DNA from: a virus
Taxonomy: Duplodnaviria > Caudoviricetes
IMG/VR virus record: IMGVR_UViG_3300031867_000001
Location: 128,001-192,000 of that record
DNA length: 64,000 bases
Strand: one strand, 5' to 3'
Positions 38,748 to 58,737 of the stretch are shown piece after piece (the stretch's first letter is position 1; each line of letters begins with the position of its first letter). A program made the translations under genes and the position numbers. Below the pieces are notes generated by a model that worked only from the letters and a program-made list of their open reading frames with translations, searched no databases and had not been told where the DNA came from.

Positions 38748-41003
38748 TCATGAAATTGTCGCTTTGACTACCTTAACGGCTGGAACGTGCTTTGGTCTTT
38801 CGGGTGGAATAGACATTGTTGTTGGTGTAATAGACGAAACATTCACAGTCGTAATCCGACCATCAACATGATTCAATTGAATCGATTGTGTTTCATCCAC
38901 ACAGAACACTGCAATCAAATCATCTTGTGGTGTCATCGAAATGATGGGTTTCAATTTACCAAACTTATTACCAGCAATCAAGAACTTGGAATGATTTACT
39001 CTGATTCTGCCAAGTTTCGTTACATAAACGAGAAGTGGTTTCTTTGGATTGATAATGAACATTCCAGCCGCTGTCTTATTATCAACCAAGAACTGACCTT
39101 GTGCATCTACTGACAATACCTTATTCAGATTGGTCAACTGGAAACGTTTACCAAGTCCATCTGATGTATACATTAACAAATCCTGTGATGTGTCATGTAC
39201 TTCCAAGATGGATACTAAGTATTCATCTTCGTCCAACGGAACAATCGGTTTACGTGTTTGATTAGATGGAATCTTATCAATCGGCATATACTTGATACGA
39301 CCTTTATTGGACAAAATCACAATGTCATTCTGTGTATTGGATACGGCTGCGATACACTTTGACATCTGGGTTCTACCAATGGATGTTAACATGATACGTT
39401 TGTCATGTGGAACCTTTGTTGTATCAACCCACAAGAATCGACCCTTATCATCAATCAAACAAACATTCGTTCCACTGACGGGTGTGATATCAGATGATAG
39501 ATGTTCCGGAGTTGCTGTCTCTGAAAAGATGACAGATCCATCTTGGAAGATTTGAACAACGCCAATGTTCACTGTTGAATTGTTTAAACCAAGAATCTTG
39601 GAGCGTCTGGGATAGCCATACTTCTCTTTGATCTCTTTCAACTCATCAATGATGCATTGATTAATCTTGACGGGGTCTGATACGATGTCTTCAATTCTAT
39701 CGACTTCTGCTTGAATATCATCCATCTTCTTAACAGTCTTCAGATATTCTTCATGTGTCAATTGATACATCTTTACATCGATCATGTAATTCGCTTGTGA
39801 TGATGATACATGTTTCGGATATGCTTTCATCAATGCACCGACAATATCCGAACGATGTTCACAATTCTTGATCGTCGTAATGGTTTTATTCAGATTCTTT
39901 TCTGATAACATGAATGCCTTACCTGTAAGCATGTTGTATTCGGTTTGTAAGATAACCGTTCTACGCAACAACCACGAACGTTTGAACTGGAAACGTTCTT
40001 TGATCCATGCCAACAGAATCTGTCGAATATTATACTTGCGGGTTCTGTATAAAGAATCTGTTACGATCATATTCTTTGTTGAGATTGGAATTCTCAATCC
40101 TGGAATAGATGTAAACAATTTATCCAATACACGATACAAGTTACATGGCTTACACCGAATCACATATTTGATTTTATTGTGAAGCAAATCCGATTCATCA
40201 TCTGCTGATAGAATCTCAGGGAATGGATTTGTCGAATCATGTAACTCATTCAGTTTCTTATTGATATCCCGCAAGAATCTCTTGTATGGTGTATTGGTAA
40301 AGGTGATGATATAATTGACATTATCCAACTCAAAGGACGATTGCATCCAAAATGTTTCATCGTCCTTTGGAATGATATCACATCCAGTCGGTGAATCTGG
40401 AATGAGCTTTACATCTGCATTTGGATTCTTTAACAGCTTAATCGTTGCATCTGCAATCTCATTCAAGTTGTATGGATAAATATCGGATGATAATGTATAT
40501 CCAATACCTGCAGATCCATTCAACAGAATGATTGGGAACTTTGCAGGAAGAATTGTCGGTTCAACAGTAGAATCATCATAATTGGGATTCATACCCACTT
40601 TACCATCAAATTCCGAGAATAATACATCATATGCAAAATCTGAAAGATACACGCCCCAATATCTACCAGCTGCAGAATCATCTCCGGCTGTTGCAGTACC
40701 GCAGTTACCAGATGCTTTTAACAACGGGATGTTATTTGCGAATGGCTGTGCCAATCCCGCAAATACATCTTTCAATCCCAATTCACCATGTGGTGAAATC
40801 TCCAATACTTTACCTGCCGCAATCGCAACGGTTACTTTGGAATGTCTGGGATAGTTCTTGTAGATTGTATACAAGATTCGACGATGGATTGGTTTCAATC
40901 CATCATAAATCATTGGAATGGAACGCTGTAAGTTTACATTTACACCATACAACGACATCCAACGTTTCGAAGCGGTATACATCTCCAATTCTTTTTCTTC
41001 CAT
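38748..41003 (-). CDS. gyrA: Type IIA topoisomerase subunit A (GyrA/ParC-like) with C-terminal pinwheel repeats
   Basis: DGLKPIHRRILY, PHG, catalytic AAGRY, P..LLNG.AGIG, KYG.PRRS and CTD repeats. Confidence 0.92.
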   Translation of the reverse strand: MEEKELEMYTASKRWMSLYGVNVNLQRSIPMIYDGLKPIHRRILYTIYKNYPRHSKVTVAIAAGKVLEISPHGELGLKDVFAGLAQPFANNIPLLKASGNCGTATAGDDSAAGRYWGVYLSDFAYDVLFSEFDGKVGMNPNYDDSTVEPTILPAKFPIILLNGSAGIGYTLSSDIYPYNLNEIADATIKLLKNPNADVKLIPDSPTGCDIIPKDDETFWMQSSFELDNVNYIITFTNTPYKRFLRDINKKLNELHDSTNPFPEILSADDESDLLHNKIKYVIRCKPCNLYRVLDKLFTSIPGLRIPISTKNMIVTDSLYRTRKYNIRQILLAWIKERFQFKRSWLLRRTVILQTEYNMLTGKAFMLSEKNLNKTITTIKNCEHRSDIVGALMKAYPKHVSSSQANYMIDVKMYQLTHEEYLKTVKKMDDIQAEVDRIEDIVSDPVKINQCIIDELKEIKEKYGYPRRSKILGLNNSTVNIGVVQIFQDGSVIFSETATPEHLSSDITPVSGTNVCLIDDKGRFLWVDTTKVPHDKRIMLTSIGRTQMSKCIAAVSNTQNDIVILSNKGRIKYMPIDKIPSNQTRKPIVPLDEDEYLVSILEVHDTSQDLLMYTSDGLGKRFQLTNLNKVLSVDAQGQFLVDNKTAAGMFIINPKKPLLVYVTKLGRIRVNHSKFLIAGNKFGKLKPIISMTPQDDLIAVFCVDETQSIQLNHVDGRITTVNVSSITPTTMSIPPERPKHVPAVKVVKATIS

Positions 41004-46406: not shown

Positions 46407-49400
46407 TCATCCTCCTTCTGAAAAAGTTTTTAAATCATATGCGAATTTATAATCCGACTTCTTTACATTGATACTTGCGATATGATTTGTAAATGTGGAT
46501 ACTGGATATTTCAAATATCCATCTGTGATGACTGCACATTCATCTGTTAATGCACAATACGATTCATCATATTCAATGTTTTCCGATTCACTCGCATTAT
46601 ACAAATATACCGCTTGTGTATATTTCTTACCGAGATTATATTTCAACGTACCAACATAATTCACACAGAACAAACCAGCGCCTGTTGGATCTAAATATAG
46701 ATTCTTATACACACATGGTATCTTTCTGAAATCATATGCTGATACACGAGAATCAGATCCTGGGTATTGAGTGTATGTTGATTTCAAAGAATCGGTTTTC
46801 AAATCATAAATCATAATATAATTTGATTGATAACAATTGATGATCAATGCATTGTTTTCATACATCACAGATGATGGATAATCACCAATTGGTGTGATGA
46901 CTTGTTTGTCACATGCGAGTGTTTCTTCATCATAAATATTGATCAAATTCTTTGTTGCAATATAGAACTTTCCATCATGGTAACAAACAGCCGCATATGT
47001 ACCTTGATATTGCGAAACCCATGTCGTTGTCGCAATCGTAAGATCATGTGCTTCTTTATCAAAGAAGAAAATCTTACATGGATTTGGTGATGGGATTATG
47101 AAGCATACCTTCTTTTTACCAACCGCAAAATCCGTAATCATTCCACTGTATGACGATGGGAAGTTGTGGTATGTGTAAATATTACCAATGATATCAAACA
47201 ATGCAACACGGCTTCCACATATATTGATGATGGTACGATGGTCGTCATCGTACCAATCCATCTTTGTACACCATCCAGTTGTGTTTGTGCTCATTTGATA
47301 ACTCAATATGTTCAACGTTGTTCGATCAACGGTGATGATACGACTGACTTCTCTTGATTGTGTTTGTGCACTACCACCTGCTACGGTTGGTCTCAGATAA
47401 TAATAGTTATCATCAACCAAGAAACATGCCATGCCATAATATGGCGTATCAATTAATAAATTATATCGGATTTTAGCAACTGGATGTATCTGGTTGGTAT
47501 CATAATGAAAACGTTTGATATCAAAATATGCAACACTTGCATCATTGACTTTTTCTATCGTAACACTTCCAATGTATACAGATCGTCCACTCACCGTACA
47601 TGTTGATGTATAACGGGCTGTCGTGTTTTCATCTGTCAAGTTTGGTACAATAAACGTTGGTATGGATTTGGAACCACCAATCTTTGTTGGTAGTAACCAT
47701 TGTGCCGTTTCAATTACACCCGTATCCGGATTGCGATAATCTTCCATCTCACCACGTGGTTTCACCAATGTGCCATAACACGGATTTTCGGGTTCACAAT
47801 CCAAAGATGGTGTAACTTCTTCTTTGGAATAATATCGATAAGATGTTGTTGATGATTTTCCTTGAGTCTCAACCGATGCGGCGTATATCTCACACTTCTG
47901 TTTTGTTGGTTCTGCAATGTCGACATTTGCAACAATTGTAATCAATCCATCCAATCCCTTTTCTGCAGAATACACAACAGTGAATATGGATTCATCTGCA
48001 TCATAATCAATCGCTGCAGATAATACGTTTGCTGCATCCAGATCTGTTTTATATTTTACAGACACACGATTTGGTGTTGATAATAAACCAACATGTGTAG
48101 TGGAATCTGTTTCATCATAAATATACAATGAATAGGATTCCGATAGTCCATTGTCTGATTTAAAGAACGATGTTGGGTGTACATCAAATATTTCTTTTGT
48201 TAATGTGGTTGGTTGTGGTACAATTAATTCCCACATTTGATTTGCTTGATTATATGCTTTATAACCATCATTATCACGTGCAATACATGGCTCGATGATA
48301 TAATTCGCAATGATTTTTGCCATGGATGTGAATAATGGAAGTGTGTTTCCACCAGCATCCGTTGTTGCATTGATCAATTGATATTTTTCTGGGACAAGAT
48401 ATCCAGATACAATATATGATGTTCCGGTATAAACATATCCTGAACCACCTTGTGCTCCATCGATGGTGTGTCTGGATTGGTTGTCGTATACACCTGAACC
48501 ACCATACCATCCGCCTCCACCACCAGCACAACGTTTGTATGTTGATGATTTAACAGAAGCGACACCACCATTTCCAAATGAACCTGCAACTGTTGTATTG
48601 AAATTGGTTGGTGCGGATGATTGTGTTGATGGATCATTAACACCGACATTATTTACAACAATTGAACGTGTTCCACCAGTTAATCCACCACCAGCACCTC
48701 CAGAAGCCAAACCTCCATTTCCTAATGCAGTACCGTTTGCTCCAGCACCACCAGCAACAATCAATCGATGATATAATGTATCACGAACAATTCTGATATC
48801 AGTTGCTCCTCCACCAGGAATTTGGTCTTGTGAATCATATGTCGTGGATGGTAAACCACCACCGTTATATGCCATAATCGGCATGTATTGAATTGCCGTT
48901 GTATGATCATCTACATCAAATGTTGGTGATCCATAATTCCACATGAATCCACATCCACCAACATTCACGTATATATCAACTGGATTATCAACCGTCAATA
49001 CACCTTGTGAAAATCCTCCTCTGGATGAATCGACAAACTTGACAGAACCACCATCTCCACCATAACATTGAACGGTATATTCACCTCTCTTCAATATCAT
49101 AGTTTCTTGTTCACCAACACATGGGAATTCAATCGTATCACCAGTTGAATATGTATCCGTCAATTCACATATGATGATTTCTCCTTCAACGGATTGTCCC
49201 GAACATTGGAAAACATCTGTGAAATAATACTTTGGATCTGGATTATACCCGTCTGGTTTATAAGATGATGCGGTCAATACATAACCGGAACCACCACCGC
49301 CATTGATTGGAGTTGTGTATTTTTTGGATTGCGTTTGGTATGTGAAACCACCATACCAGCCTCCTCCTCCACCACCACAACCTTCATCAATACCAACTGC

Positions 49401-50804
49401 ACCGCCACCTTCATTGCTGGCTTTCCGTACTGGCATTTTCGAATATCCTTCGGTGAATCCAAATGTCTGGTTTGCGATCAATCTACTATTTGGATCAAAC
49501 GCATCATATGTATCCATATAACCGCCATTGATGCCACCACCAATGGATGTAACATATGCGCTCGTTTTAACACATGCTCCACCACCACCAGCAACCATGA
49601 TTCTGGAATCGATGGACGGATGTAATCTTTTATAGTCAGATAATGCGGTTGGTAATACACCTTGGATGGGATCGAGCATTGGCATGTTGGATACTTTGTC
49701 ATACAAATAAATCTTCCCATCATACAGTCGAGTGGTTGGAATATAGTCACGAACAAGTGTTTCTCCTTCATATATTTTACAGCCATAAAACTTCATGAAA
49801 GATGGTTCTGTTACATTTCGGATGTTTGTACCATTACATGCTCCACCAATTGTGAATGGAACGCTGTAAGTTGGAACTGTTCCCGTAGCTCGTTCAATCT
49901 TACCAACTGATGTACCATTCAAGAACCACTCAGCTTTATTAACATCCATTACCAATTTGATTCTTTGATTCCATACAAACTCACCAACGATATTTTGGTT
50001 CGTTGTGGAATTGATTCGGAATGTTGGTTTAAATGAACTTGAAAGAACTGTGTAGAATGAAAACTCGGTATTGCCCGAAGAATTTCTGGAAGTGATTATT
50101 CCAGAACGTGCATACTTTGTAGATCTTCTGTACATCAAAACACAATCCAATTCAACACGTGTATTTTCATTTGGAATATAATCCGTTATGAAATAATTTC
50201 CATCCATTGTTGTTGCTTCATCTCGAATATTATTAAAACCAATAAAATCATAATAATCAAGCTGTTGGAAGATGTGTGTTTCATCATACACACCTGGAAC
50301 TGCATCTGCATCTTCATATTGTACAACTGGATTTGCGGGTGGAATGTATGCCGCCGTTTCTGGATCATTCGTTGGATATTCATTTGGATCATATGCCAAT
50401 AAACGAATATCCGATGCTCCACCACCTCCACCTCCAGGAATGGAGTCATTATCACGTCCAACTCCACCATGTGCTCCGCCATTAAATCCACCGACTTGAT
50501 CAAGTATGGATTTCCCATCATACTTGTAATCACGATCATTTGTCACATCAGCGCCGTTACCACCAACAACTGCATGGAATGTTTCGGTTTCATTTAATGT
50601 GATTACACCATATGAAACACCACCCATTGACAAAGCGACATTCTCATCTTCACCAAATGGTGAATAGACACCGCCTCTGCCACCTTTACAGATAAACAGA
50701 TATGTTCCAGATGGTAGTGTGAATGGCTGATCACCATTCACACATTTAAAGTCATAGATTACTTTCCACATGTTATTCTTATATACAATAATACGATCAT
50801 TCAA
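46407..50804 (-). CDS. Glycine-rich tail fibre/receptor-binding protein
   Basis: TTG start after AGGAG. Two Gly-rich domains (GGGASDIR / GGGATDIR, GGGGGWYGG, GGSGYV), an inserted ConA/LamG-like segment and a C-terminal propeller-like region. Confidence 0.75.
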   Translation of the reverse strand: MNDRIIVYKNNMWKVIYDFKCVNGDQPFTLPSGTYLFICKGGRGGVYSPFGEDENVALSMGGVSYGVITLNETETFHAVVGGNGADVTNDRDYKYDGKSILDQVGGFNGGAHGGVGRDNDSIPGGGGGGASDIRLLAYDPNEYPTNDPETAAYIPPANPVVQYEDADAVPGVYDETHIFQQLDYYDFIGFNNIRDEATTMDGNYFITDYIPNENTRVELDCVLMYRRSTKYARSGIITSRNSSGNTEFSFYTVLSSSFKPTFRINSTTNQNIVGEFVWNQRIKLVMDVNKAEWFLNGTSVGKIERATGTVPTYSVPFTIGGACNGTNIRNVTEPSFMKFYGCKIYEGETLVRDYIPTTRLYDGKIYLYDKVSNMPMLDPIQGVLPTALSDYKRLHPSIDSRIMVAGGGGACVKTSAYVTSIGGGINGGYMDTYDAFDPNSRLIANQTFGFTEGYSKMPVRKASNEGGGAVGIDEGCGGGGGGWYGGFTYQTQSKKYTTPINGGGGSGYVLTASSYKPDGYNPDPKYYFTDVFQCSGQSVEGEIIICELTDTYSTGDTIEFPCVGEQETMILKRGEYTVQCYGGDGGSVKFVDSSRGGFSQGVLTVDNPVDIYVNVGGCGFMWNYGSPTFDVDDHTTAIQYMPIMAYNGGGLPSTTYDSQDQIPGGGATDIRIVRDTLYHRLIVAGGAGANGTALGNGGLASGGAGGGLTGGTRSIVVNNVGVNDPSTQSSAPTNFNTTVAGSFGNGGVASVKSSTYKRCAGGGGGWYGGSGVYDNQSRHTIDGAQGGSGYVYTGTSYIVSGYLVPEKYQLINATTDAGGNTLPLFTSMAKIIANYIIEPCIARDNDGYKAYNQANQMWELIVPQPTTLTKEIFDVHPTSFFKSDNGLSESYSLYIYDETDSTTHVGLLSTPNRVSVKYKTDLDAANVLSAAIDYDADESIFTVVYSAEKGLDGLITIVANVDIAEPTKQKCEIYAASVETQGKSSTTSYRYYSKEEVTPSLDCEPENPCYGTLVKPRGEMEDYRNPDTGVIETAQWLLPTKIGGSKSIPTFIVPNLTDENTTARYTSTCTVSGRSVYIGSVTIEKVNDASVAYFDIKRFHYDTNQIHPVAKIRYNLLIDTPYYGMACFLVDDNYYYLRPTVAGGSAQTQSREVSRIITVDRTTLNILSYQMSTNTTGWCTKMDWYDDDHRTIINICGSRVALFDIIGNIYTYHNFPSSYSGMITDFAVGKKKVCFIIPSPNPCKIFFFDKEAHDLTIATTTWVSQYQGTYAAVCYHDGKFYIATKNLINIYDEETLACDKQVITPIGDYPSSVMYENNALIINCYQSNYIMIYDLKTDSLKSTYTQYPGSDSRVSAYDFRKIPCVYKNLYLDPTGAGLFCVNYVGTLKYNLGKKYTQAVYLYNASESENIEYDESYCALTDECAVITDGYLKYPVSTFTNHIASINVKKSDYKFAYDLKTFSEGG

Positions 50805-50861
50805 ATTAATCACACTCCTTATTGTCTCATATATGATATAAGACAAAACGTTACAATTTTG

Positions 50862-50883
50862 TGACGGGGCATATGCCCCGTCA
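50862..50883. terminator. Perfect palindrome TGACGGGGCATATGCCCCGTCA
   Basis: 3' of the 50893 gene. Confidence 0.75.
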
Positions 50884-50892
50884 ACATGTAAA

Positions 50893-51300
50893 TTACTCTT
50901 GTGATGAAGGTGTATATGGAGTATCGGATGCACTGTAAATAGCAACCAATGTATCGTCTGGAATAACATTGAGTTGTCGTTGTGTTGGATCTCCATTGAA
51001 TGTAATGACTTGAGATTCAAAGCCAACAACTTTCAAGTTACCATTCTGACAATCCTCTTCAACTGTACGAGACATGTATTCTCTGATGGCTCTGTATACT
51101 GTCTCAGTTGCAGTGTCAACCAACAATGCATTTCTCTTGTACAACTTATTCGATTCATAATCGGCAATAGAAGCATTACCACTTCCACCGCCCAATTCCA
51201 ATTGCTCCAACTTTTCAGTCAATTGTGCCAACAACTCTTGTTGTGTTGCAATTGTTTGAAACAATGTTTGGAAAATCTGATCATCAAACTGTTGAGGCAT
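50893..51300 (-). CDS. Hypothetical virion-associated protein (coiled coil plus small beta domain)
   Basis: AAGGAGGGAG SD; starts MPQQFDD. Confidence 0.75.
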   Translation of the reverse strand: MPQQFDDQIFQTLFQTIATQQELLAQLTEKLEQLELGGGSGNASIADYESNKLYKRNALLVDTATETVYRAIREYMSRTVEEDCQNGNLKVVGFESQVITFNGDPTQRQLNVIPDDTLVAIYSASDTPYTPSSQE

Positions 51301-51325
51301 TTGTAACTCCCTCCTTTATAAAAAA

Positions 51326-51529
51326 TTAACCTTGCTGTTGTTCCAACCAATAATCTACTCGTGCATTAATTCTTGTTAATAATGAATTAATCGTTCCAAG
51401 CTGTTCAATCGTTGGTTGTAACTCTGTATTCAATTTTTTGATTACAAACGCCCATGTGATAACATTTGCAATATCTCCATCTGGTAATTCAAATGACAAC
51501 GGTTTTGTATCATCAAACTGTTGTGGCAT
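51326..51529 (-). CDS. Small hypothetical protein
   Basis: GAGAGG SD; also starts MPQQFDD. Confidence 0.7.
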   Translation of the reverse strand: MPQQFDDTKPLSFELPDGDIANVITWAFVIKKLNTELQPTIEQLGTINSLLTRINARVDYWLEQQQG

Positions 51530-51557
51530 ATTGAACACCTCTCTTTCTTCTATAATA

Positions 51558-51570
51558 TTAATGATTCGTT
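51558..51570 (-). promoter_or_regulatory. Putative late promoter AACG-AATCAT-TAA
   Basis: Identical to 14896-14908 and likewise placed directly after a terminator. Confidence 0.55.
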
Positions 51571-51582
51571 TTTACAACAAAA

Positions 51583-51610
51583 AAGAACCCCACGTGATTG
51601 TGGGGTTCTT
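51583..51610 (-). terminator. Intrinsic terminator AAGAACCCCAC...GTGGGGTTCTT
   Basis: Hairpin plus U-tract on the minus strand. Confidence 0.75.
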
Positions 51611-51635
51611 CGGGAATCGCAAGGTTGAACGGTTG

Positions 51636-51842
51636 TTAATCTGGGAGCTTGATAAACAACTCCGAGTATTTAACAGCCCAGCATGCAAAGGCTGTCATAA
51701 CGATGAACCCGAAAGTCCATCCGATTGCTGGGCAATACTCAGGGTCTCCCAGCTTGTACAGAACATAGATGACAGTCGGGATGTGGATGGTCATAACCAT
51801 CCGAGCGATAGCTATGCGCAGTTTTCTAATTTTGTTTTTCAT
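51636..51842 (-). CDS. Small 2-TM membrane protein
   Basis: AAGGAGAGG SD, MKNKIRKL start, two hydrophobic helices. Confidence 0.7.
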   Translation of the reverse strand: MKNKIRKLRIAIARMVMTIHIPTVIYVLYKLGDPEYCPAIGWTFGFIVMTAFACWAVKYSELFIKLPD

Positions 51843-51874
51843 AATGAACCTCTCCTTTTTTACTTTATAAATAA

Positions 51875-52075
51875 CCAATTGAACATTGTGATGAGTTGGT
51901 TTGTTGCGTACTCGTGGAAGCCGCTAACTCTAACTTCCACGTTTATTTGCGATTTTACTCGCAAATTATGATACTACCCGTAGTGTCGGGAATATAAATC
52001 TCGCCGATTTCAGTCATATTAACACCTCCTTTATACGGAGAATTCCACTCCGTCGATTTCACAATGTTCAATTGG
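51875..52075 (-). ncRNA. Structured RNA element with micro-ORF, copy 1
   Basis: 17-bp perfect terminal inverted repeat (51875-51891 / 52059-52075) and three internal hairpins shared with copy 2. Confidence 0.65.
51955..52017 (-). CDS. Micro-peptide MTEIGEIYIPDTTGSIIICE (20 aa)
   Basis: AAAGGAGG SD, 8 nt from AGGAG to ATG; paralogue at 54721-54774 differs largely at synonymous positions. Confidence 0.7.
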   Translation of the reverse strand: MTEIGEIYIPDTTGSIIICE

Positions 52076-52084
52076 CTTTTGGTA

Positions 52085-52114
52085 ATATATGCGGGGAATA
52101 TTCCCCGCATATAT
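52085..52114. repeat. 30-bp perfect palindrome ATATATGCGGGGAATATTCCCCGCATATAT
   Basis: Lies between the early-promoter motif and RNA element copy 1. Confidence 0.7.
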
Positions 52115-52147
52115 CATATTAATTATATATATTTCAAATTTTAATAT
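52115..52147 (-). promoter_or_regulatory. Putative early promoter
   Basis: 33/33 identical to 16506-16538. Confidence 0.7.
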
Positions 52148-52453
52148 TACATAAAATTAATCATGTCTCATGTTTGATGAATATGACTTGTATGGTTTTC
52201 TCAATTCCTTTACGTCAATACCACGTCAGGTATAAGAAATGAAAATGAAATGAAAGTGAAGTAGATTTCTATCATGACCATATTCTCAATAATAAAAAAA
52301 TAAAAATTCACAATCTTGTGTCTTTTTCAGCCGCTAACTGTTTTATTACCATGAGACGGATATGCATGGTCGGAGTATTAGGTTGCATTGTACTAATACT
52401 TCGACGCGGAGTCAATAATGAAGCTCGGTTCTGATCTTCTCTCATATATGGTT

Positions 52454-52483
52454 TGATTACGGGGGCGTGTGCCCCCGTAATCA
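52454..52483. terminator. Hairpin TGATTACGGGGGC-GTGT-GCCCCCGTAATCA
   Basis: 3' of the 52498 gene. Confidence 0.7.
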
Positions 52484-52497
52484 TTCCCCTCTCATGA

Positions 52498-53244
52498 TTA
52501 GTTTCCATACCACCAAGTCTTGAATGCCGAACCGAAATTGATCGGTCTTTTTACATAGTCATCGCATTCATCACAGCCGGTTGTGATATCAGTATAGATG
52601 ACTCCTTTATTGGTGAATACGTGTTTACCATACTCTTGCTGAAATTCTGCAATAGTTGCATTCTCTCCACCATTAGAAGGAGTGAATGTACAAATCTGAC
52701 ATCTACCATATCCTGGTTTACCCATATTCTGGCAGTATTTGCATGTACGGCAAACGTTTACAGATGTCGGTCTATTGTCGAGAATATCATTGATAACCTC
52801 GAGAATCATGTTGTCCAACTCTCCATCAAACGCATTGTAGATGGCTTGGAATACGATTGACATCTTCTCGGTATCATATCCACCATCATCAACAATCTGA
52901 ATCATTCTGAAGAAGAGCTCTCCCATGAATTCTTTCGATTGTTTTGGATCAAGAGCTATGATGCGTTTTGCAATAGCCGAGTTGTTGATCAACGTTCCAT
53001 ACTTCTTGATGACAAGCCATGAGAACTTACCAGCTTCATTCAACTTATCATCCATATGAATCAGCTGACGATGCGACATGTGAACGCATGTCGGAGATGA
53101 GATCTCGATTGTATCATCGGTTCTGTCAACGATAATAGACAAGTGGGCAGTTGGCTGCCCACTCACACGAATGTTTACATTACCTTTCTTTTCAAAGTCG
53201 TTTAAAGCTTTGATGAAGGAATCGCCGAGTCTTTCATTATTCAT
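52498..53244 (-). CDS. Hypothetical protein with C-terminal Cys-rich (metal-binding) domain
   Basis: CRTCKYC...C..C...C..C; AAGGAG SD. Confidence 0.75.
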   Translation of the reverse strand: MNNERLGDSFIKALNDFEKKGNVNIRVSGQPTAHLSIIVDRTDDTIEISSPTCVHMSHRQLIHMDDKLNEAGKFSWLVIKKYGTLINNSAIAKRIIALDPKQSKEFMGELFFRMIQIVDDGGYDTEKMSIVFQAIYNAFDGELDNMILEVINDILDNRPTSVNVCRTCKYCQNMGKPGYGRCQICTFTPSNGGENATIAEFQQEYGKHVFTNKGVIYTDITTGCDECDDYVKRPINFGSAFKTWWYGN

Positions 53245-53246
53245 TT

Positions 53247-54599
53247 TTATTCTCCTTTCTTATATACGGAAGCGAATTCAACAATCTCTTGTGCGGTTTT
53301 ACCTTTCAACAGTTCCACCTGCAAAGTTGCGAATGTCAAACCTTCTCCAACATGTGTCGGAGTGATACCATTACCAGGGAAATATTTGTCTATAAATTCC
53401 TTTAATGTCTCCGGGCATACGGATGGGATCTCAACACAAATGTCACATCTACCGGGTCTGATCAATGCTGGATCCAACTTATTCTTGTGATTTGTTGTCA
53501 TGATATAGATGATGTTCTTTGGTGATGCAGCTCCATCAAACGTGTTCAAGATTGTTGCCAAACCACGACTGTTGCATTTAATGTTGTCGAAGTCTGTATC
53601 ATCATTATCATCATCATTGATAACTAATCTGGATCGCAGCATGTTAGTTGTTTCATTTAATCCAGAATCGATATCCTCAATACATAATACTCGATAATGT
53701 GATTTTGTTACCGGGTTTAACCTGATATGATTTTTGACGATATTGTCAATATAACGAATATTATCGCCCGAGGTAACATAGAATGCTGCATCAATTTCAT
53801 TCGCAATTGCTTGCGCTATGGAGCTCTTGCCAGTACCAGGATCTGAGTATAATAAGATACCAAAATGGTTGGGGATATTGCTCGACTCATAGAAGTCGTA
53901 TGATTCAACGTACTTCTTCACTGGATCCATGATTTGATGATATATGGAATTCGGAATGAATACGTCTTCGAACGTTCGCAGCTTTCGATTGTCTACAATG
54001 TCAATATTGCTGTAGTCACTGATGACAAAGAACTGTCCATACTCACGCATACGTTCATTGATCTGTAACATCGACAGTTTGTAGCATTCAGCAATAAACA
54101 TCTTAAGTGTCTTGATACACTTGTCAACATTGAGTGTCGACAAGGTCAATTTATACTTAGATTGTCCATCAACATACTCCGGATTGTATGTGGATTTCAG
54201 CAGTATCGGAACGTTGTGATACATGATGATTTTCTGGAAATTGCTGCCTCTACTCCACATCAAATCCTTCTTATACTTGATTGGTTCAAAATCATCAAGA
54301 TGGTTGATCCTTAAGCAATCATCATAGTTATTGAAGAATTTAAACAAACCATATGAGATTTGTTCATATGTGTCTTTGATGGAGATGGTGTGGATGCAGT
54401 TGGACTTTGTTTGTTCAAGCAATGTTTTGATGACTGGTGATAATACTTCTGCAGCAATAACAGTCCCCGCTGATTGGAACATCTTTGCTTTGAGATTCTT
54501 GATCTTTTCCTTCCTCTTGTCGTTGTTCAGTTTGGCATGGTATTTATGCCATTCACGTGGATTTAAACCGGATTGCTTCCTCCGTTTGTTGTTGTTCAT
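53247..54599 (-). CDS. AAA+ ATPase, BCS1-like
   Basis: GILLYSDPGTGKSS, IEDID, LNTFDG and MTTNH..KLDPALIRPGRCD. Confidence 0.9.
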   Translation of the reverse strand: MNNNKRRKQSGLNPREWHKYHAKLNNDKRKEKIKNLKAKMFQSAGTVIAAEVLSPVIKTLLEQTKSNCIHTISIKDTYEQISYGLFKFFNNYDDCLRINHLDDFEPIKYKKDLMWSRGSNFQKIIMYHNVPILLKSTYNPEYVDGQSKYKLTLSTLNVDKCIKTLKMFIAECYKLSMLQINERMREYGQFFVISDYSNIDIVDNRKLRTFEDVFIPNSIYHQIMDPVKKYVESYDFYESSNIPNHFGILLYSDPGTGKSSIAQAIANEIDAAFYVTSGDNIRYIDNIVKNHIRLNPVTKSHYRVLCIEDIDSGLNETTNMLRSRLVINDDDNDDTDFDNIKCNSRGLATILNTFDGAASPKNIIYIMTTNHKNKLDPALIRPGRCDICVEIPSVCPETLKEFIDKYFPGNGITPTHVGEGLTFATLQVELLKGKTAQEIVEFASVYKKGE

Positions 54600-54633
54600 A
54601 TCATTTCTCCTTTACCAATTTACTTATGATTAA

Positions 54634-54835
54634 TCCAAATCTGGGATACTTATGATACGTTTGTTTATTACGGGTACGGAAGGTTGTGGCTTCCGTTTAT
54701 TATTCTTTAATTATTTGCGATTATTCGCAAATAATAATACTACCATCAGTATTAGGAATATAAACTTCTTCCACATTATCAGCTCCTTTATACGGAGAAT
54801 TCCACTCCGTCAATTTCATGAGTATTCCATTTGGA
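54634..54835 (-). ncRNA. Structured RNA element with micro-ORF, copy 2
   Basis: Imperfect terminal inverted repeat (54634-54655 / 54816-54835); 29-nt block identical to copy 1 (54783-54811 = 52026-52054). Confidence 0.65.
54721..54774 (-). CDS. Micro-peptide MEEVYIPNTDGSIIICE (17 aa, GTG start)
   Basis: Same AGGAG-8 nt-start spacing as copy 1; conserved YIPxTxGSIIICE. Confidence 0.65.
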   Translation of the reverse strand: MEEVYIPNTDGSIIICE

Positions 54836-54836
54836 C

Positions 54837-54858
54837 CATATTAATTATATAAATATAA
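54837..54858 (-). promoter_or_regulatory. Putative early promoter
   Basis: TATATAATTAATATG directly abuts RNA element copy 2. Confidence 0.65.
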
Positions 54859-54866
54859 AAAATACG

Positions 54867-54890
54867 AATGCGGGGGATATCCCCCGCATT
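54867..54890. terminator. Perfect palindrome AATGCGGGGGATATCCCCCGCATT
   Basis: 3' of the gyrB-RNAP operon. Confidence 0.75.
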
Positions 54891-54900
54891 ACATATACTT

Positions 54901-55653
54901 TTACTTCTTCCATCCGTATGAATGTGCAATGATCTCTCCCAACACATTGGAGAAATTATTTGATTCGGATCGAGGTCCATTTCTGAACTCAATGCCTATA
55001 TGATAATAACCTTCTTTGTTCTTATATGTCTCTATTACCGAATAATCGGTGTGTTTCTTTAATAACGCAATCAATTCCATCAGCTGTGATTTGTTGTAAC
55101 ACTGGAATGTGTAAACACCATTGTTTTTGGTTTTGTCATTCTGATATACAACATGTGCAATCAAATCTTGCGGAACCAATTCGCGTAACTTATAAATTCT
55201 GGACGTATCAAACCCGGGTTCTTTTTCAAAAGACATCATTGTCAATGTTTTGAATCGATCATGATAATACTCTTGTCTACCGAGTGAATTATCAACTAAG
55301 AATCCATGTAACAAATCCGTGATGTCTTTGATTGTTGTGATATTAGATGCGATTTCTGATTGCAACCTGGATGGTGTGCATGCATAAATATAATCAATCG
55401 CTTCTGATAATCTCAACTTGAGAACAATCGTGTCTTTATCCATGTATTGTGTTTGATACCACAACGTATTTGCATGAAAATGGTTTGTCTCCCAGAACTT
55501 ACGACAGAAGTATTCCCACGGATGATCATACTTCAACGTGACTTCGAATATACCATTGTCATATAATCCTTCGGATCTGTATCCTTTTGAAAGAAGATAT
55601 TTCAACGTATCATCGAATGTTCGAACAATCGGTTCTACCAACAATACTTCCAT
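54901..55653 (-). CDS. Hypothetical protein
   Basis: GGAGG SD before MEVLL. Confidence 0.7.
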   Translation of the reverse strand: MEVLLVEPIVRTFDDTLKYLLSKGYRSEGLYDNGIFEVTLKYDHPWEYFCRKFWETNHFHANTLWYQTQYMDKDTIVLKLRLSEAIDYIYACTPSRLQSEIASNITTIKDITDLLHGFLVDNSLGRQEYYHDRFKTLTMMSFEKEPGFDTSRIYKLRELVPQDLIAHVVYQNDKTKNNGVYTFQCYNKSQLMELIALLKKHTDYSVIETYKNKEGYYHIGIEFRNGPRSESNNFSNVLGEIIAHSYGWKK

Positions 55654-56736: not shown

Positions 56737-58737
56737 TTATAAGTAACCTTCACCAAACATGAAGTCGGAGAATGAACGAACACCAACTCGGTTGATTTCA
56801 TTTCTTGCATCAAATACGGAACGTAACAACTGATCGGATGTCTTCTCAAATGCAACAGCAGTCATTGCGGATTCGGAATTATCCAATGCAGTCTTAACGG
56901 TCACGATCTGATATGGCTCATTGTCATTCAACCAATTTGGACGCAGCATTCTGTTGTCGATGTCTCTGACCAAATGACCAATGATGATTTCTCCATGTAC
57001 CGAGAAGATCGGAATCAATCCATGCAAGATATTCATCAACGAGCAAACGGCATCTGCAATATTGTCATATTTTGCAATACCGGAATTGAAGAACTTGATG
57101 ATGTCCATATACTTGGAGATGACACTGATGTTGACTGGTGTGATTTCACATAATGCACCACCAGATTCCACAACCTTGAAGTTTGTGGTTTGGAGATATG
57201 TGACGTCATCAATCTCAACACGTTTCATCTTATCCAGTACTTGAGATGGAATATGGATATCTGCATAATTGGATACAGTTACTTCTTCCATGTCTTTACC
57301 CATATAGAATGTCAGTGACTCACTCAGATTGTTGTGATAATCTTCACGAATCATGATATTGAATCTCTTCTCATCTAAAGGATATACATTTGAAGAATAC
57401 ATTTGTAACCACTTATCCCAATTGGTTGTGAATTCAACACGTTCTGCATCTGTCTTCAACAAATGTTTTGCACTTAAGATATTCTGCGACACACGGGATG
57501 TCATAAGCTCTGTCGTGTAAATGAATCCACCTTCCAAGTCACCAACTTGTGTTGCGATTGTTCCATAACAAACATGACAACAATCTTCATTCAAGTTACA
57601 TGTACATGGAGAACGGAACCACAGCGTTTCACCGATCAAATCACGATCAGTCTTATGCAACACATGTAAGATTCCATCATTCTTATTCTTCATATAGAAA
57701 CGACCTTGCATCATATGAAGTACGGTATCATCAACTGTAATCGGAATGGGATTGCGTGATCCACAATCATAAATGGTTTTGGAGATTGTACCGTATGTGA
57801 GCATCATCATGTTTCGATTAAAGTATCCAGATTCTCCCATCCATCTTTCATTCATTAAGTCTGGAACTTTCGCTGCAATTGAGGCGGCATAGAAAACTGG
57901 CTTGTCATGATAACCCGCTTTGAATCCATTACCATTCATAATTACGGGAATGATGTCACGACCATCAGGAATCTGGGAGAAGTTGATATACAATTCTTCC
58001 ATCTGCTTCGGTTTAACAATCTTCGCATATTTCGAATCGATGAAGAATGGATTACCACGTTTCATCATTTCTTGTTCCAGAATCTTATACTTCGCAGCAT
58101 TGTTTGCAACAATGTCAACCGTCTGCATATCAGGTGGATATTCCGTATCATTAATCTCGCGAACGATTTCAGATTCCATATAATGATCCAAGAACAGATT
58201 CTCAGCTGTGAAGATCTGTAAATCTGCTTGTGAGAAGATTGCCGTTTGCTCTTTCAAATCAAGTGACATTCTCGCCATGATGGTTTGGATTTCAAAGTTG
58301 CTTAATCCATTTCCACGTAATACCAGAACGATATGATCTTGAATTGCTTCACGATCCTTTTCTGACATGAACTTATGCAGAATGAAATCATTGATATCTA
58401 CTTTATGCAGATATGGAAGAATGGTTCTGATAAATGCCATTGAAATCATGAATCGATTTAATGGGATTGCATAAACCATTGTATCATCAACCGATACTTT
58501 GAAATGCATTGGTGTATGCTGGAGAACATCATTGTTGTATTTGATATTCCAGCAACAAACACACACATCAACAACCCGGTTGTATAATTGATCATATAAA
58601 TCGGGATCTGTATATCGATCCAGAATGATTAAATCACCAAGCAATTGATACACCAATTCAGGTGTATCAATCGTTTGGTACTGACGGATGTCTGGGAATT
58701 GCGATTCATTCACATCTGTGTCACGATTAAAATTCAT
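56737..58737 (-). CDS. RNA polymerase beta' subunit C-terminal fragment (probably non-virion RNAP)
   Basis: ESGYFNR, DCGS, FRSPCTCN..CCHVCYG, SQNILSAKH and VHGEIII; co-transcribed with gyrB. Confidence 0.85.
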   Translation of the reverse strand: MNFNRDTDVNESQFPDIRQYQTIDTPELVYQLLGDLIILDRYTDPDLYDQLYNRVVDVCVCCWNIKYNNDVLQHTPMHFKVSVDDTMVYAIPLNRFMISMAFIRTILPYLHKVDINDFILHKFMSEKDREAIQDHIVLVLRGNGLSNFEIQTIMARMSLDLKEQTAIFSQADLQIFTAENLFLDHYMESEIVREINDTEYPPDMQTVDIVANNAAKYKILEQEMMKRGNPFFIDSKYAKIVKPKQMEELYINFSQIPDGRDIIPVIMNGNGFKAGYHDKPVFYAASIAAKVPDLMNERWMGESGYFNRNMMMLTYGTISKTIYDCGSRNPIPITVDDTVLHMMQGRFYMKNKNDGILHVLHKTDRDLIGETLWFRSPCTCNLNEDCCHVCYGTIATQVGDLEGGFIYTTELMTSRVSQNILSAKHLLKTDAERVEFTTNWDKWLQMYSSNVYPLDEKRFNIMIREDYHNNLSESLTFYMGKDMEEVTVSNYADIHIPSQVLDKMKRVEIDDVTYLQTTNFKVVESGGALCEITPVNISVISKYMDIIKFFNSGIAKYDNIADAVCSLMNILHGLIPIFSVHGEIIIGHLVRDIDNRMLRPNWLNDNEPYQIVTVKTALDNSESAMTAVAFEKTSDQLLRSVFDARNEINRVGVRSFSDFMFGEGYL

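Follow-up and report, generated by a model that had tools for sequence, protein, structure and literature searches.

In a 64,000-nucleotide stretch of virus DNA (Duplodnaviria; Caudoviricetes; positions 128,001 to 192,000 of IMG/VR record IMGVR_UViG_3300031867_000001, hereafter the window), we analysed two minus-strand elements of about 200 nt, in each of which a long-range stem (P1) encloses, from 5' to 3', a hairpin (P2), a Shine-Dalgarno (SD) sequence, a micro-open reading frame (micro-ORF), a hairpin with the stop codon in its loop (P3) and a last hairpin (P4). The two copies belong to a family in which the micro-ORF, on its substitution pattern, is clearly a coding sequence under strong purifying selection, and in which P1 keeps its pairing while its sequence changes. 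We hold with moderate confidence that this module is an autonomous, multi-copy early micro-gene, whose fold would insulate and stabilise the RNA and may permit its excision, whose P2 hairpin would be an operator or binding site, and whose peptide would act in trans. The original prediction, made from the sequence of the window, had described a duplicated cassette of this architecture, and each feature that it listed was found on the minus strand where it had been placed.

A multi-copy module in AR9-like rumen jumbo phages

The record containing the window is a complete virus genome of 250,503 bp, with terminal repeats and 37.6% G+C (hereafter the home genome). Using a covariance model built on eight copies, we found seven copies of the module in this genome and five in the 257.9-kb genome G001, the sole IMG/VR relative found for the home phage, and both reading frame and pairing were kept in these homologues. 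Thus, "duplicated" describes the window correctly and undercounts the genome. A search of the home genome with nhmmer returned zero copies beyond the seven, and the exact P2 sequence occurs five times genome-wide. Peptide-derived pattern searches yielded eight additional true contigs from metagenomes and one extra contig from IMG/VR; the covariance-model alignment comprised 25 copies, 23 of them distinct (24 with the extra IMG/VR contig). Another metagenome match, L032, lay within a long ORF and was discarded as a false positive. The runs containing the module stretch were bovine gut or rumen samples.

The home phage encodes an RNA polymerase (RNAP) subunit of the multisubunit type at 56737-58737 (-), which matches phrog_3015. 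Since the best cultured relatives of this subunit are those of AR9/PBS1, at 27% identity (other matches being jumbo phages of Bacillus, Staphylococcus, Yersinia, Serratia and Salmonella), the home phage is a distant AR9-like jumbo phage. The module carriers are a clade of AR9-like rumen jumbo phages. Comparison of the cassette and peptide with 50,697 cultured-phage records by megablast, blastn and tblastn gave zero matches, and two peptide-derived patterns gave 0 matches in 185,579 prokaryote species genomes. Over the whole AR9 genome the covariance model returned hairpin-sized matches alone, all with E > 0.1; early leaders in the first 50 kb of AR9 are short. An nhmmer match within the RNAP subunit gene itself (57922-58004, -; residues 246-270, MEELYINFSQIPDGRDIIPV; MEELYI...IPDG..DII) had an E-value of 0.007 and is probably due to chance, since its BLASTP E-value was 0.11.

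Consistently with the statement in the original prediction that the element belongs to no recognised family, Rfam 15 at the gathering threshold gave 0 matches in the whole window, and an Rfam E-value scan of 51500-55100 gave sub-threshold matches only, none spanning a module; the few touching one (traJ_5, sraA and frnS, none with E below 0.05) either clip its promoter-proximal end only or fall on the other strand. ARAGORN detected no tRNA or transfer-messenger RNA (tmRNA) in 51000-55500, and the 20-aa peptides had zero matches in Pfam and NCBIfam at E up to 10. In the literature, we found no described equivalent.

The micro-ORF encodes a conserved peptide

Across the family the micro-ORF is 16-20 codons long, with the consensus GE[IV]YIP[DN]TxGxIIIC[E/G]-stop (EIYIPDTTGSIIICE is an example), and the 21 copies of the main type read E-[IV]-[YF]-[IV]-P-[DN]-T-x-G-x-x-[IV]-[IF]-C-[EGDN]-stop. 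Despite codon variation, the residues Pro, Thr, Gly and Cys never change, Pro being present in 21/21 copies with all four synonymous codons in use. The pairwise Nei-Gojobori ratio of non-synonymous to synonymous change (dN/dS) was 0.08 in frame, versus 1.44 and 0.98 when the two remaining frames were read, and the minimum numbers of changes at codon positions 1, 2 and 3 were 13, 7 and 27. This coding signature was strong in every subfamily, and a second peptide type, MGEIITGEEIFLG, carried by a shorter module, differed between the home phage and G001 by five synonymous and zero non-synonymous changes.

The stop codon is the anchor point of conservation: counted back from it, 13 residues are conserved, and copies differ in how long their N-terminus is. 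The peptide looks like a beta-hairpin, with a predicted strand EIYIP, a turn D/N-T-x-G and a second strand xIIIC. Membership of the ribosomally synthesised and post-translationally modified peptides or of the quorum peptides (RRNPP/arbitrium, SHP, Phr) finds no support in these features, as there was no family match, the N-terminus is acidic and short, and the neighbouring genes vary at every copy. One metagenomic copy (L030:3988-4167 and L033:2204-2383, -) has TAA at codon 3 and has lost P4, with P1, P2 and the remaining frame still recognisable; because the premature stop is accompanied by the loss of P4, this copy reads as recently inactivated and decaying. The home genome has 11 tRNA genes in three clusters (genome positions 26236-50721, ARAGORN), none of them for Ile, a residue in which the peptide is rich.

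P1 is conserved in pairing and P2 in sequence

Both window copies fold much more stably than shuffled sequences (z = -6.7 for copy 1 and -4.9 for copy 2; 0/200 shuffles as good). On the model alignment 93.3% of the cells were paired, versus 28-43% with slid partners, and double changes had occurred in 27/37 pairs, including 15/17 in P1; the alignment was fitted to the covariance model, so that the pairing figures are somewhat inflated, a bias that the slid controls carry equally. Together with the dN/dS of 0.08, these data bear out the proposal that peptide and structure are both under selection. Regional identity, expressed as the mean pairwise value over 15 core copies, was distributed as follows.

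P1 outer arms: 0.43-0.46
Third codon positions: 0.54
Junctions: 0.75-0.78
P3 3' arm: 0.81
SD region: 0.87
ORF position 1: 0.87
P2 stem-loop: 0.92
ORF position 2: 0.93

The low identity of P1, similar to that of third codon positions, combined with its covariation, together with the value of 0.92 for P2, on a par with non-synonymous sites, indicates that P1 is selected for pairing only and P2 for sequence. In P3 the ratio of G-U to A-C pairs was 29:5, which identifies it as a structure of the sense-strand RNA. In the G001 copy at 39118, the P2 stem is swapped for AUUAU/AUAAU with the loop UGGAAAU retained. Since the divergent copies (G001 39118 and 153339, and the E-type) have kept the peptide and P1, with P2 and P4 lost or replaced, the peptide plus the closing stem constitute the invariant core of the module.

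The SD, AAAGGAGGUGAU, is extended and complements the 16S 3' end almost perfectly. The arms of P1 are ~40 nt away from the start codon on the 5' side and ~60 nt away from the stop on the 3' side. P2, whose end is ~17 nt short of the start codon, contains a CUCC that could otherwise pair with the SD. Two further elements were considered and rejected: a pseudoknot between GGAAU of the P2 loop and AUUCC of the Tyr-Ile-Pro codons, for which the Ile wobble base and the loop variant did not covary, and a hammerhead-like CUGAUGA present in one subtype only.

Anatomy of the two window copies

In both copies UGAAAUYG and P2 lead into AUAAAGGAG, and a 29-nt block, GACGGAGTGGAATTCTCCGTATAAAGGAG, is identical between them, occurring twice in the window versus 0 expected (100 shuffles). 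P1 in copy 1 (CCAATTGAACATTGTGA / TCACAATGTTCAATTGG) is perfect over 17 bp and extends to ~27 nt at 85% complementarity, and copy 2 has a different sequence with imperfect pairing. The start codon follows AGGAG by 8 nt, as ATG in copy 1 and as GTG, overlapped by an out-of-frame ATG, in copy 2, and the peptides read as had been predicted, MTEIGEIYIPDTTGSIIICE and (M)EEVYIPNTDGSIIICE, respectively. In both copies UAA lies in the P3 loop, and the P1 3' arm comes after P4 and a CA-rich tract. Each copy stands behind the motif ...TATATAATTAATATG and ahead of a gene unrelated to that of the other (a 68-aa hydrophobic protein and a 450-aa AAA ATPase).

Copy 1 (minus strand):

51875-52075 (-): whole module, with all the features originally listed
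52115..52141 (-): promoter-like motif AAATTTGAAATATATATAATTAATATG; predicted transcription start at the final G, 52115, by analogy
52085..52114 (-): 15-bp palindromic hairpin ATATATGCGGGGAAT/ATTCCCCGCATATAT, beginning at predicted +2
52059..52075 (-): P1 5' arm, perfect 17-bp pairing with 51875-51891
52035..52053 (-): P2 hairpin ACGGAG-UGGAAUU-CUCCGU, preceded by the junction AAUCG
52023..52032 (-): extended SD AAAGGAGGUG, read from the sequence
51955..52017 (-): micro-ORF MTEIGEIYIPDTTGSIIICE, ATG start, 20 codons, then stop; coding signature
51945..51966 (-): P3 hairpin AUUUGCGA-GUAAAA-UCGCAAAU, UAA stop in the loop; from the fold and the pairing in the alignment
51913..51941 (-): P4 hairpin CGUGGAAG...CUUCCACG
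51892..51906 (-): CA-rich junction CAACAAACCAACUCA, 0.75 identity across the core copies
51875..51891 (-): P1 3' arm, pairing with 52059-52075
51636..51842 (-): gene 3' of the module and outside it, for the 68-aa hydrophobic (two-transmembrane, 2-TM) protein, which matches no family

Copy 2 (minus strand):

about 54635-54835 (-): whole module, architecture as in copy 1
54867..54890 (-): terminator of the upstream unit, ahead of the module
54837..54862 (-): promoter-like motif; predicted start G at 54837, 3 nt before P1
54816..54834 (-): P1 5' arm CCAAAUGGAAUACUCAUGA, unlike copy 1 in sequence; pairing imperfect
54792..54810 (-): P2 hairpin
54780..54789 (-): SD AAAGGAGCUG
54721..54774 (-): micro-ORF EEVYIPNTDGSIIICE, GTG start, 17 codons, then stop; conserved frame
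54707..54737 (-): P3 hairpin, UAA in the loop
54676..54696 (-): P4 hairpin ACGGAAG-CCACAAC-CUUCCGU, with a terminator-like score on the + strand
54635..54655 (-): P1 3' arm UCAUAAGUAUCCCAGAUUUGG
53247..54599 (-): gene 3' of the module and outside it, for the 450-aa AAA ATPase (PF00004, E 1.8e-17)

The ATG that lies 1 base 5' of the GTG of copy 2 opens another frame, encoding a hydrophobic 21-mer, MWKKFIFLILMVVLLFANNRK (54714-54779, -), which is unconserved in the other copies. Read on the opposite strand (54676-54696, +, and its equivalents in other copies), P4 would make a good intrinsic terminator, a hairpin followed by UUUAUUAUU, because an A-rich tract precedes P4 on the sense strand; such a terminator could block antisense transcription. 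In the 13-20 nt past the P1 3' arm (54620-54634, -, and the 3' flanks of other copies), we observed two conserved types of sequence, GGAUUAAUCAUWRGU and GGUUAUUUAUAAAGU, the former resembling the promoter core AAUUAAUAUG. This promoter-like flank may be a trace of module insertion by recombination at promoters.

Promoter analogy and RNA data

The experimentally defined early promoter of the AR9 virion RNAP is AAATATATATTAT-(6N)-G+1 (PMC5312081). The motif in the window, AAATATATATAAT-TAATAT-G, differs from this consensus by one mismatch, and its function as a promoter is assigned by analogy; because of this analogy, the transcription start is predicted at the final G. The description of the motif as an early promoter therefore agrees with the AR9 consensus, and its timing stands by analogy only. 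Early transcription of the module is plausible on the same grounds. The motif AAATTTGAAATATATATAATTAATATG has ~22 occurrences in the genome (up to 2 mismatches), five of which precede a module. P1 starts at predicted +3 to +5 in copy 2 and several others, and the remaining promoter-led copies carry a separate hairpin at the 5' end, as does copy 1 (copy B of the home genome has the same arrangement, with the hairpin starting at predicted +2), so that P1 or a separate hairpin lies 1-15 nt from the predicted 5' end.

Three bovine metatranscriptome runs contained 5-7% of the words when the query was 3.5 kb long, and 18-40% when it was 501 nt long and centred on cassette 1. Metatranscriptome contigs of 176-246 nt covered 51850-52095, 51890-52076 and 51889-52064, and further pieces came from a copy-B-like cassette. 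The rest of 3.7 kb was mostly uncovered in the RNA runs, and one DNA run covered all 3.7 kb. Copy 2 was uncovered in the RNA runs, an absence that carries no evidential weight. As contigs give no ends, strand or level, and DNA carry-over is possible, this coverage hints only weakly at an abundant module RNA.

A proposed autonomous early micro-gene

In the mechanism that we favour, the early virion-RNAP promoter would have the module made as infection begins, and its very strong ribosome-binding site (RBS), AAAGGAGGUGAU, would drive translation of the 16-20-codon ORF up to an efficient UAA stop. The scaffold should survive translation, with P1 outside the footprints of starting and terminating ribosomes, P4 beyond the terminating ribosome, and P3 alone opened. 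P1 would insulate the fold from its flanks and stabilise the RNA, and host RNase III might excise the module at P1 as a discrete ~190-nt RNA (RNase III genes, PF14622 and PF00636, were not found in the home phage or in G001). P2 would be a sequence-specific operator or a protein-binding site controlling translation, and the peptide would be the product, acting in trans on a host or phage partner.

Several observations weigh against parts of this mechanism. In five of the seven home-genome copies the module occupies precisely the 5' leader position expected of a cis element, and the peptide has no known relative or predicted partner. From the strong conservation of the P2 sequence it is evident that the RNA has a function over and above that of a scaffold. 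P1 is 11-20 bp long in many copies, which is short for a classical RNase III site, and its G-U to A-C ratio of 10:10 favours neither strand as the one on which it acts. Since the longest RNA contig (51850-52095) passes both P1 arms, the metatranscriptome contigs are no evidence for P1 cleavage, and the contig ends near 51886-51890 are possibly assembly breaks at repeats.

A related possibility, to which we assign a low probability, is a novel, two-product early effector unit: one stem-closed RNA of ~190 nt would be excised at P1 from early virion-RNAP transcripts, its sequence-specific P2/junction element titrating or binding a host or phage factor and its beta-hairpin micro-peptide acting on a separate target, independently of the position of the module in the genome.

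Genomic context and a role in cis

Modules were found in 5' leaders, between genes and at operon ends. The genes downstream are mutually unrelated, one encoding just 33 aa, and at three copies (67486 in the home genome, its G001 counterpart at 47607, and the L037 copy) the module is followed by a terminator and then a convergent gene. G001 has two modules in tandem at the counterpart locus of 67486. At the G001 loci orthologous to both window copies, promoter and gene (2-TM protein and AAA ATPase) are kept and the module is absent; the module is facultative. Small genes seem to be exchanged at early leader positions. At locus L040, the site of cassette 1, G001 (178,800-178,250, -) carries in place of the module, behind the same promoter, two such genes, one a Cys-rich, zinc-ribbon-like ORF and the other an ORF of 33 aa.

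The original prediction had offered a leader-peptide attenuator as one explanation. In predicted folds of the module with its downstream leader, the downstream SD/RBS did not pair with the module, and no sense-strand terminator was present inside or after the module, P4 being followed by GUCC... rather than by U's. The unrelated or absent downstream genes, the module-free orthologs, the lack of RBS pairing and the lack of a terminator therefore weigh against a gene-specific attenuator. Moreover, when compared with attenuators of the trp/his/ilv type, the module has no sense-strand terminator hairpin and is not always upstream of an operon.

A cis-acting leader of another kind, in which the nascent peptide would stall or slow the ribosome near the stop (as in TnaC, ErmCL and SecM) or a bound ribosome would be a 5' stabiliser (as in STAB-SD and the ermC leader in Bacillus), setting the expression or stability of early operons, also appears unlikely to us. 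It draws on the same five of seven copies, which lie directly behind an early-type promoter and ahead of genes, on a peptide whose conservation is anchored to the stop while its N-terminus varies in length, on last codons that form the P3 5' arm with the stop in the P3 loop, and on the match of the SD to the 16S 3' end. An arrest leader should have a conserved nascent peptide whose distance from the stall site is fixed, and the conservation seen here is compatible with this, though unspecific. It should also have a structure, remodelled by the stalled ribosome, that masks the downstream RBS, a Rho site or a terminator; in the predicted folds, the downstream SD regions did not pair with the module. 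The trailing copies have no downstream gene to regulate, the 2-TM and AAA orthologs of G001 manage without the module, the module does not pair with the downstream SD in the predicted folds, and no sense-strand terminator follows P3 or P4. The stop context UAA-U/A, which favours fast release, also counts against a stalling leader.

The RNA as main effector, and mobility

We regard as decidedly unlikely that the RNA is the main effector, with the ORF secondary or a second function (as in RNAIII/hld), for example as a protein-binding or sponge RNA, with CsrA as a candidate partner, or as an RNA acting on polymerase or RNases. The fold is very stable, P2 (0.92) and the junctions (0.75-0.78) are conserved far above the ~0.45-0.54 neutral level, the P2 loop outlasted replacement of its stem in G001 39118, and module-sized RNA contigs were recovered. 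The P2 loop UGGAAWU and the SD GGAG, whose GGA motifs are ~20 nt apart, also have a layout resembling that of CsrA targets. These points have to be set against the strong coding signature in every subfamily and against copies that keep the peptide without P2 or P4, the sole copy with a premature stop being also without P4 and looking like decay. In addition, Rfam gave zero matches, and the pseudoknot between the P2 loop and the YIP codons showed no covariation.

A selfish element resembling a miniature inverted-repeat transposable element, with the P1 arms as terminal inverted repeats, would fit the many copies, their presence or absence at orthologous loci and the inverted repeats at their boundaries, but is highly improbable because a transposase would need a conserved end sequence and the repeats differ among copies (0.45 identity) with compensatory changes; besides, no target-site duplications or direct repeats were seen at the flanks on inspection, the internal peptide is under purifying selection, and the spread of the module is more simply explained by recombination at the repeated promoter.

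Relation to known systems

The concept of an autonomous micro-gene in a closed RNA has precedents in structured RNAs that encode small peptides, in early RNAs of phages that are bounded by RNase III sites, and in leader peptides. The dual-function RNAs (RNAIII/delta-haemolysin of S. aureus, SR1/SR1P of B. subtilis and SgrS/SgrT of E. coli) are likewise structured RNAs of a few hundred nt with a micro-ORF, in which RNA elements and peptide are conserved. In contrast to them, the module is much shorter, has one long-range closing stem, occurs in 5-7 copies per phage genome, and is phage-encoded behind a promoter of the virion-RNAP type, without sequence or Rfam relationship to them or a known pairing target. 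Stems processed by RNase III (in the early transcripts of phages T7 and SP82, and in rRNA precursors) are also long double-stranded stems that delimit stable RNA units and are conserved in pairing over sequence, whereas the P1 of the module, in many cases short of two helical turns, is wrapped around a whole micro-gene and is not intergenic, and its cleavage is only conjectured here.

With leader and arrest peptides and 5' stabilisers (ErmCL/ermC, TnaC, cryIIIA STAB-SD), the module shares a short ORF, a strong SD near the transcript 5' end and conservation anchored to the end of the ORF; unlike them, it lacks alternative pairing to a downstream RBS or terminator, some of its copies have no downstream gene, and orthologous genes are module-free. 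P2 resembles phage translational operators (the T4 gene 43 and regA targets, the MS2 coat-protein hairpin) in being a small hairpin with a conserved loop just 5' of the SD, a likeness of position and conservation pattern only. Paired 5' and 3' ends, an internal short ORF and a stop in a hairpin recall tmRNA, but the module is devoid of a tRNA-like domain and has ordinary initiation with an SD and AUG or GUG.

Micro-proteins of < 20 aa are nearly invisible to gene callers and have barely been explored in phages, and the comparative evidence for this one (coding signature, covariation, many paralogs) is unusually clean. The module opens the transcripts that an injected virion RNA polymerase probably makes first; if the peptide, P2 or both do act on host or phage machinery, they would represent a new class of takeover or regulatory factor. 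The module would also exemplify a natural, context-independent expression cassette closed by a long-range stem. The covariance model and the peptide signature can serve as annotation aids for this uncultured clade of rumen jumbo phages.

Elsewhere in the window, the ALK/LTK glycine-rich domain (PF12810, E 9e-62; phrog_1589), which is unusual in phage proteins, is present as three stretches in a 1540-aa ORF at 46407-51029 (-).

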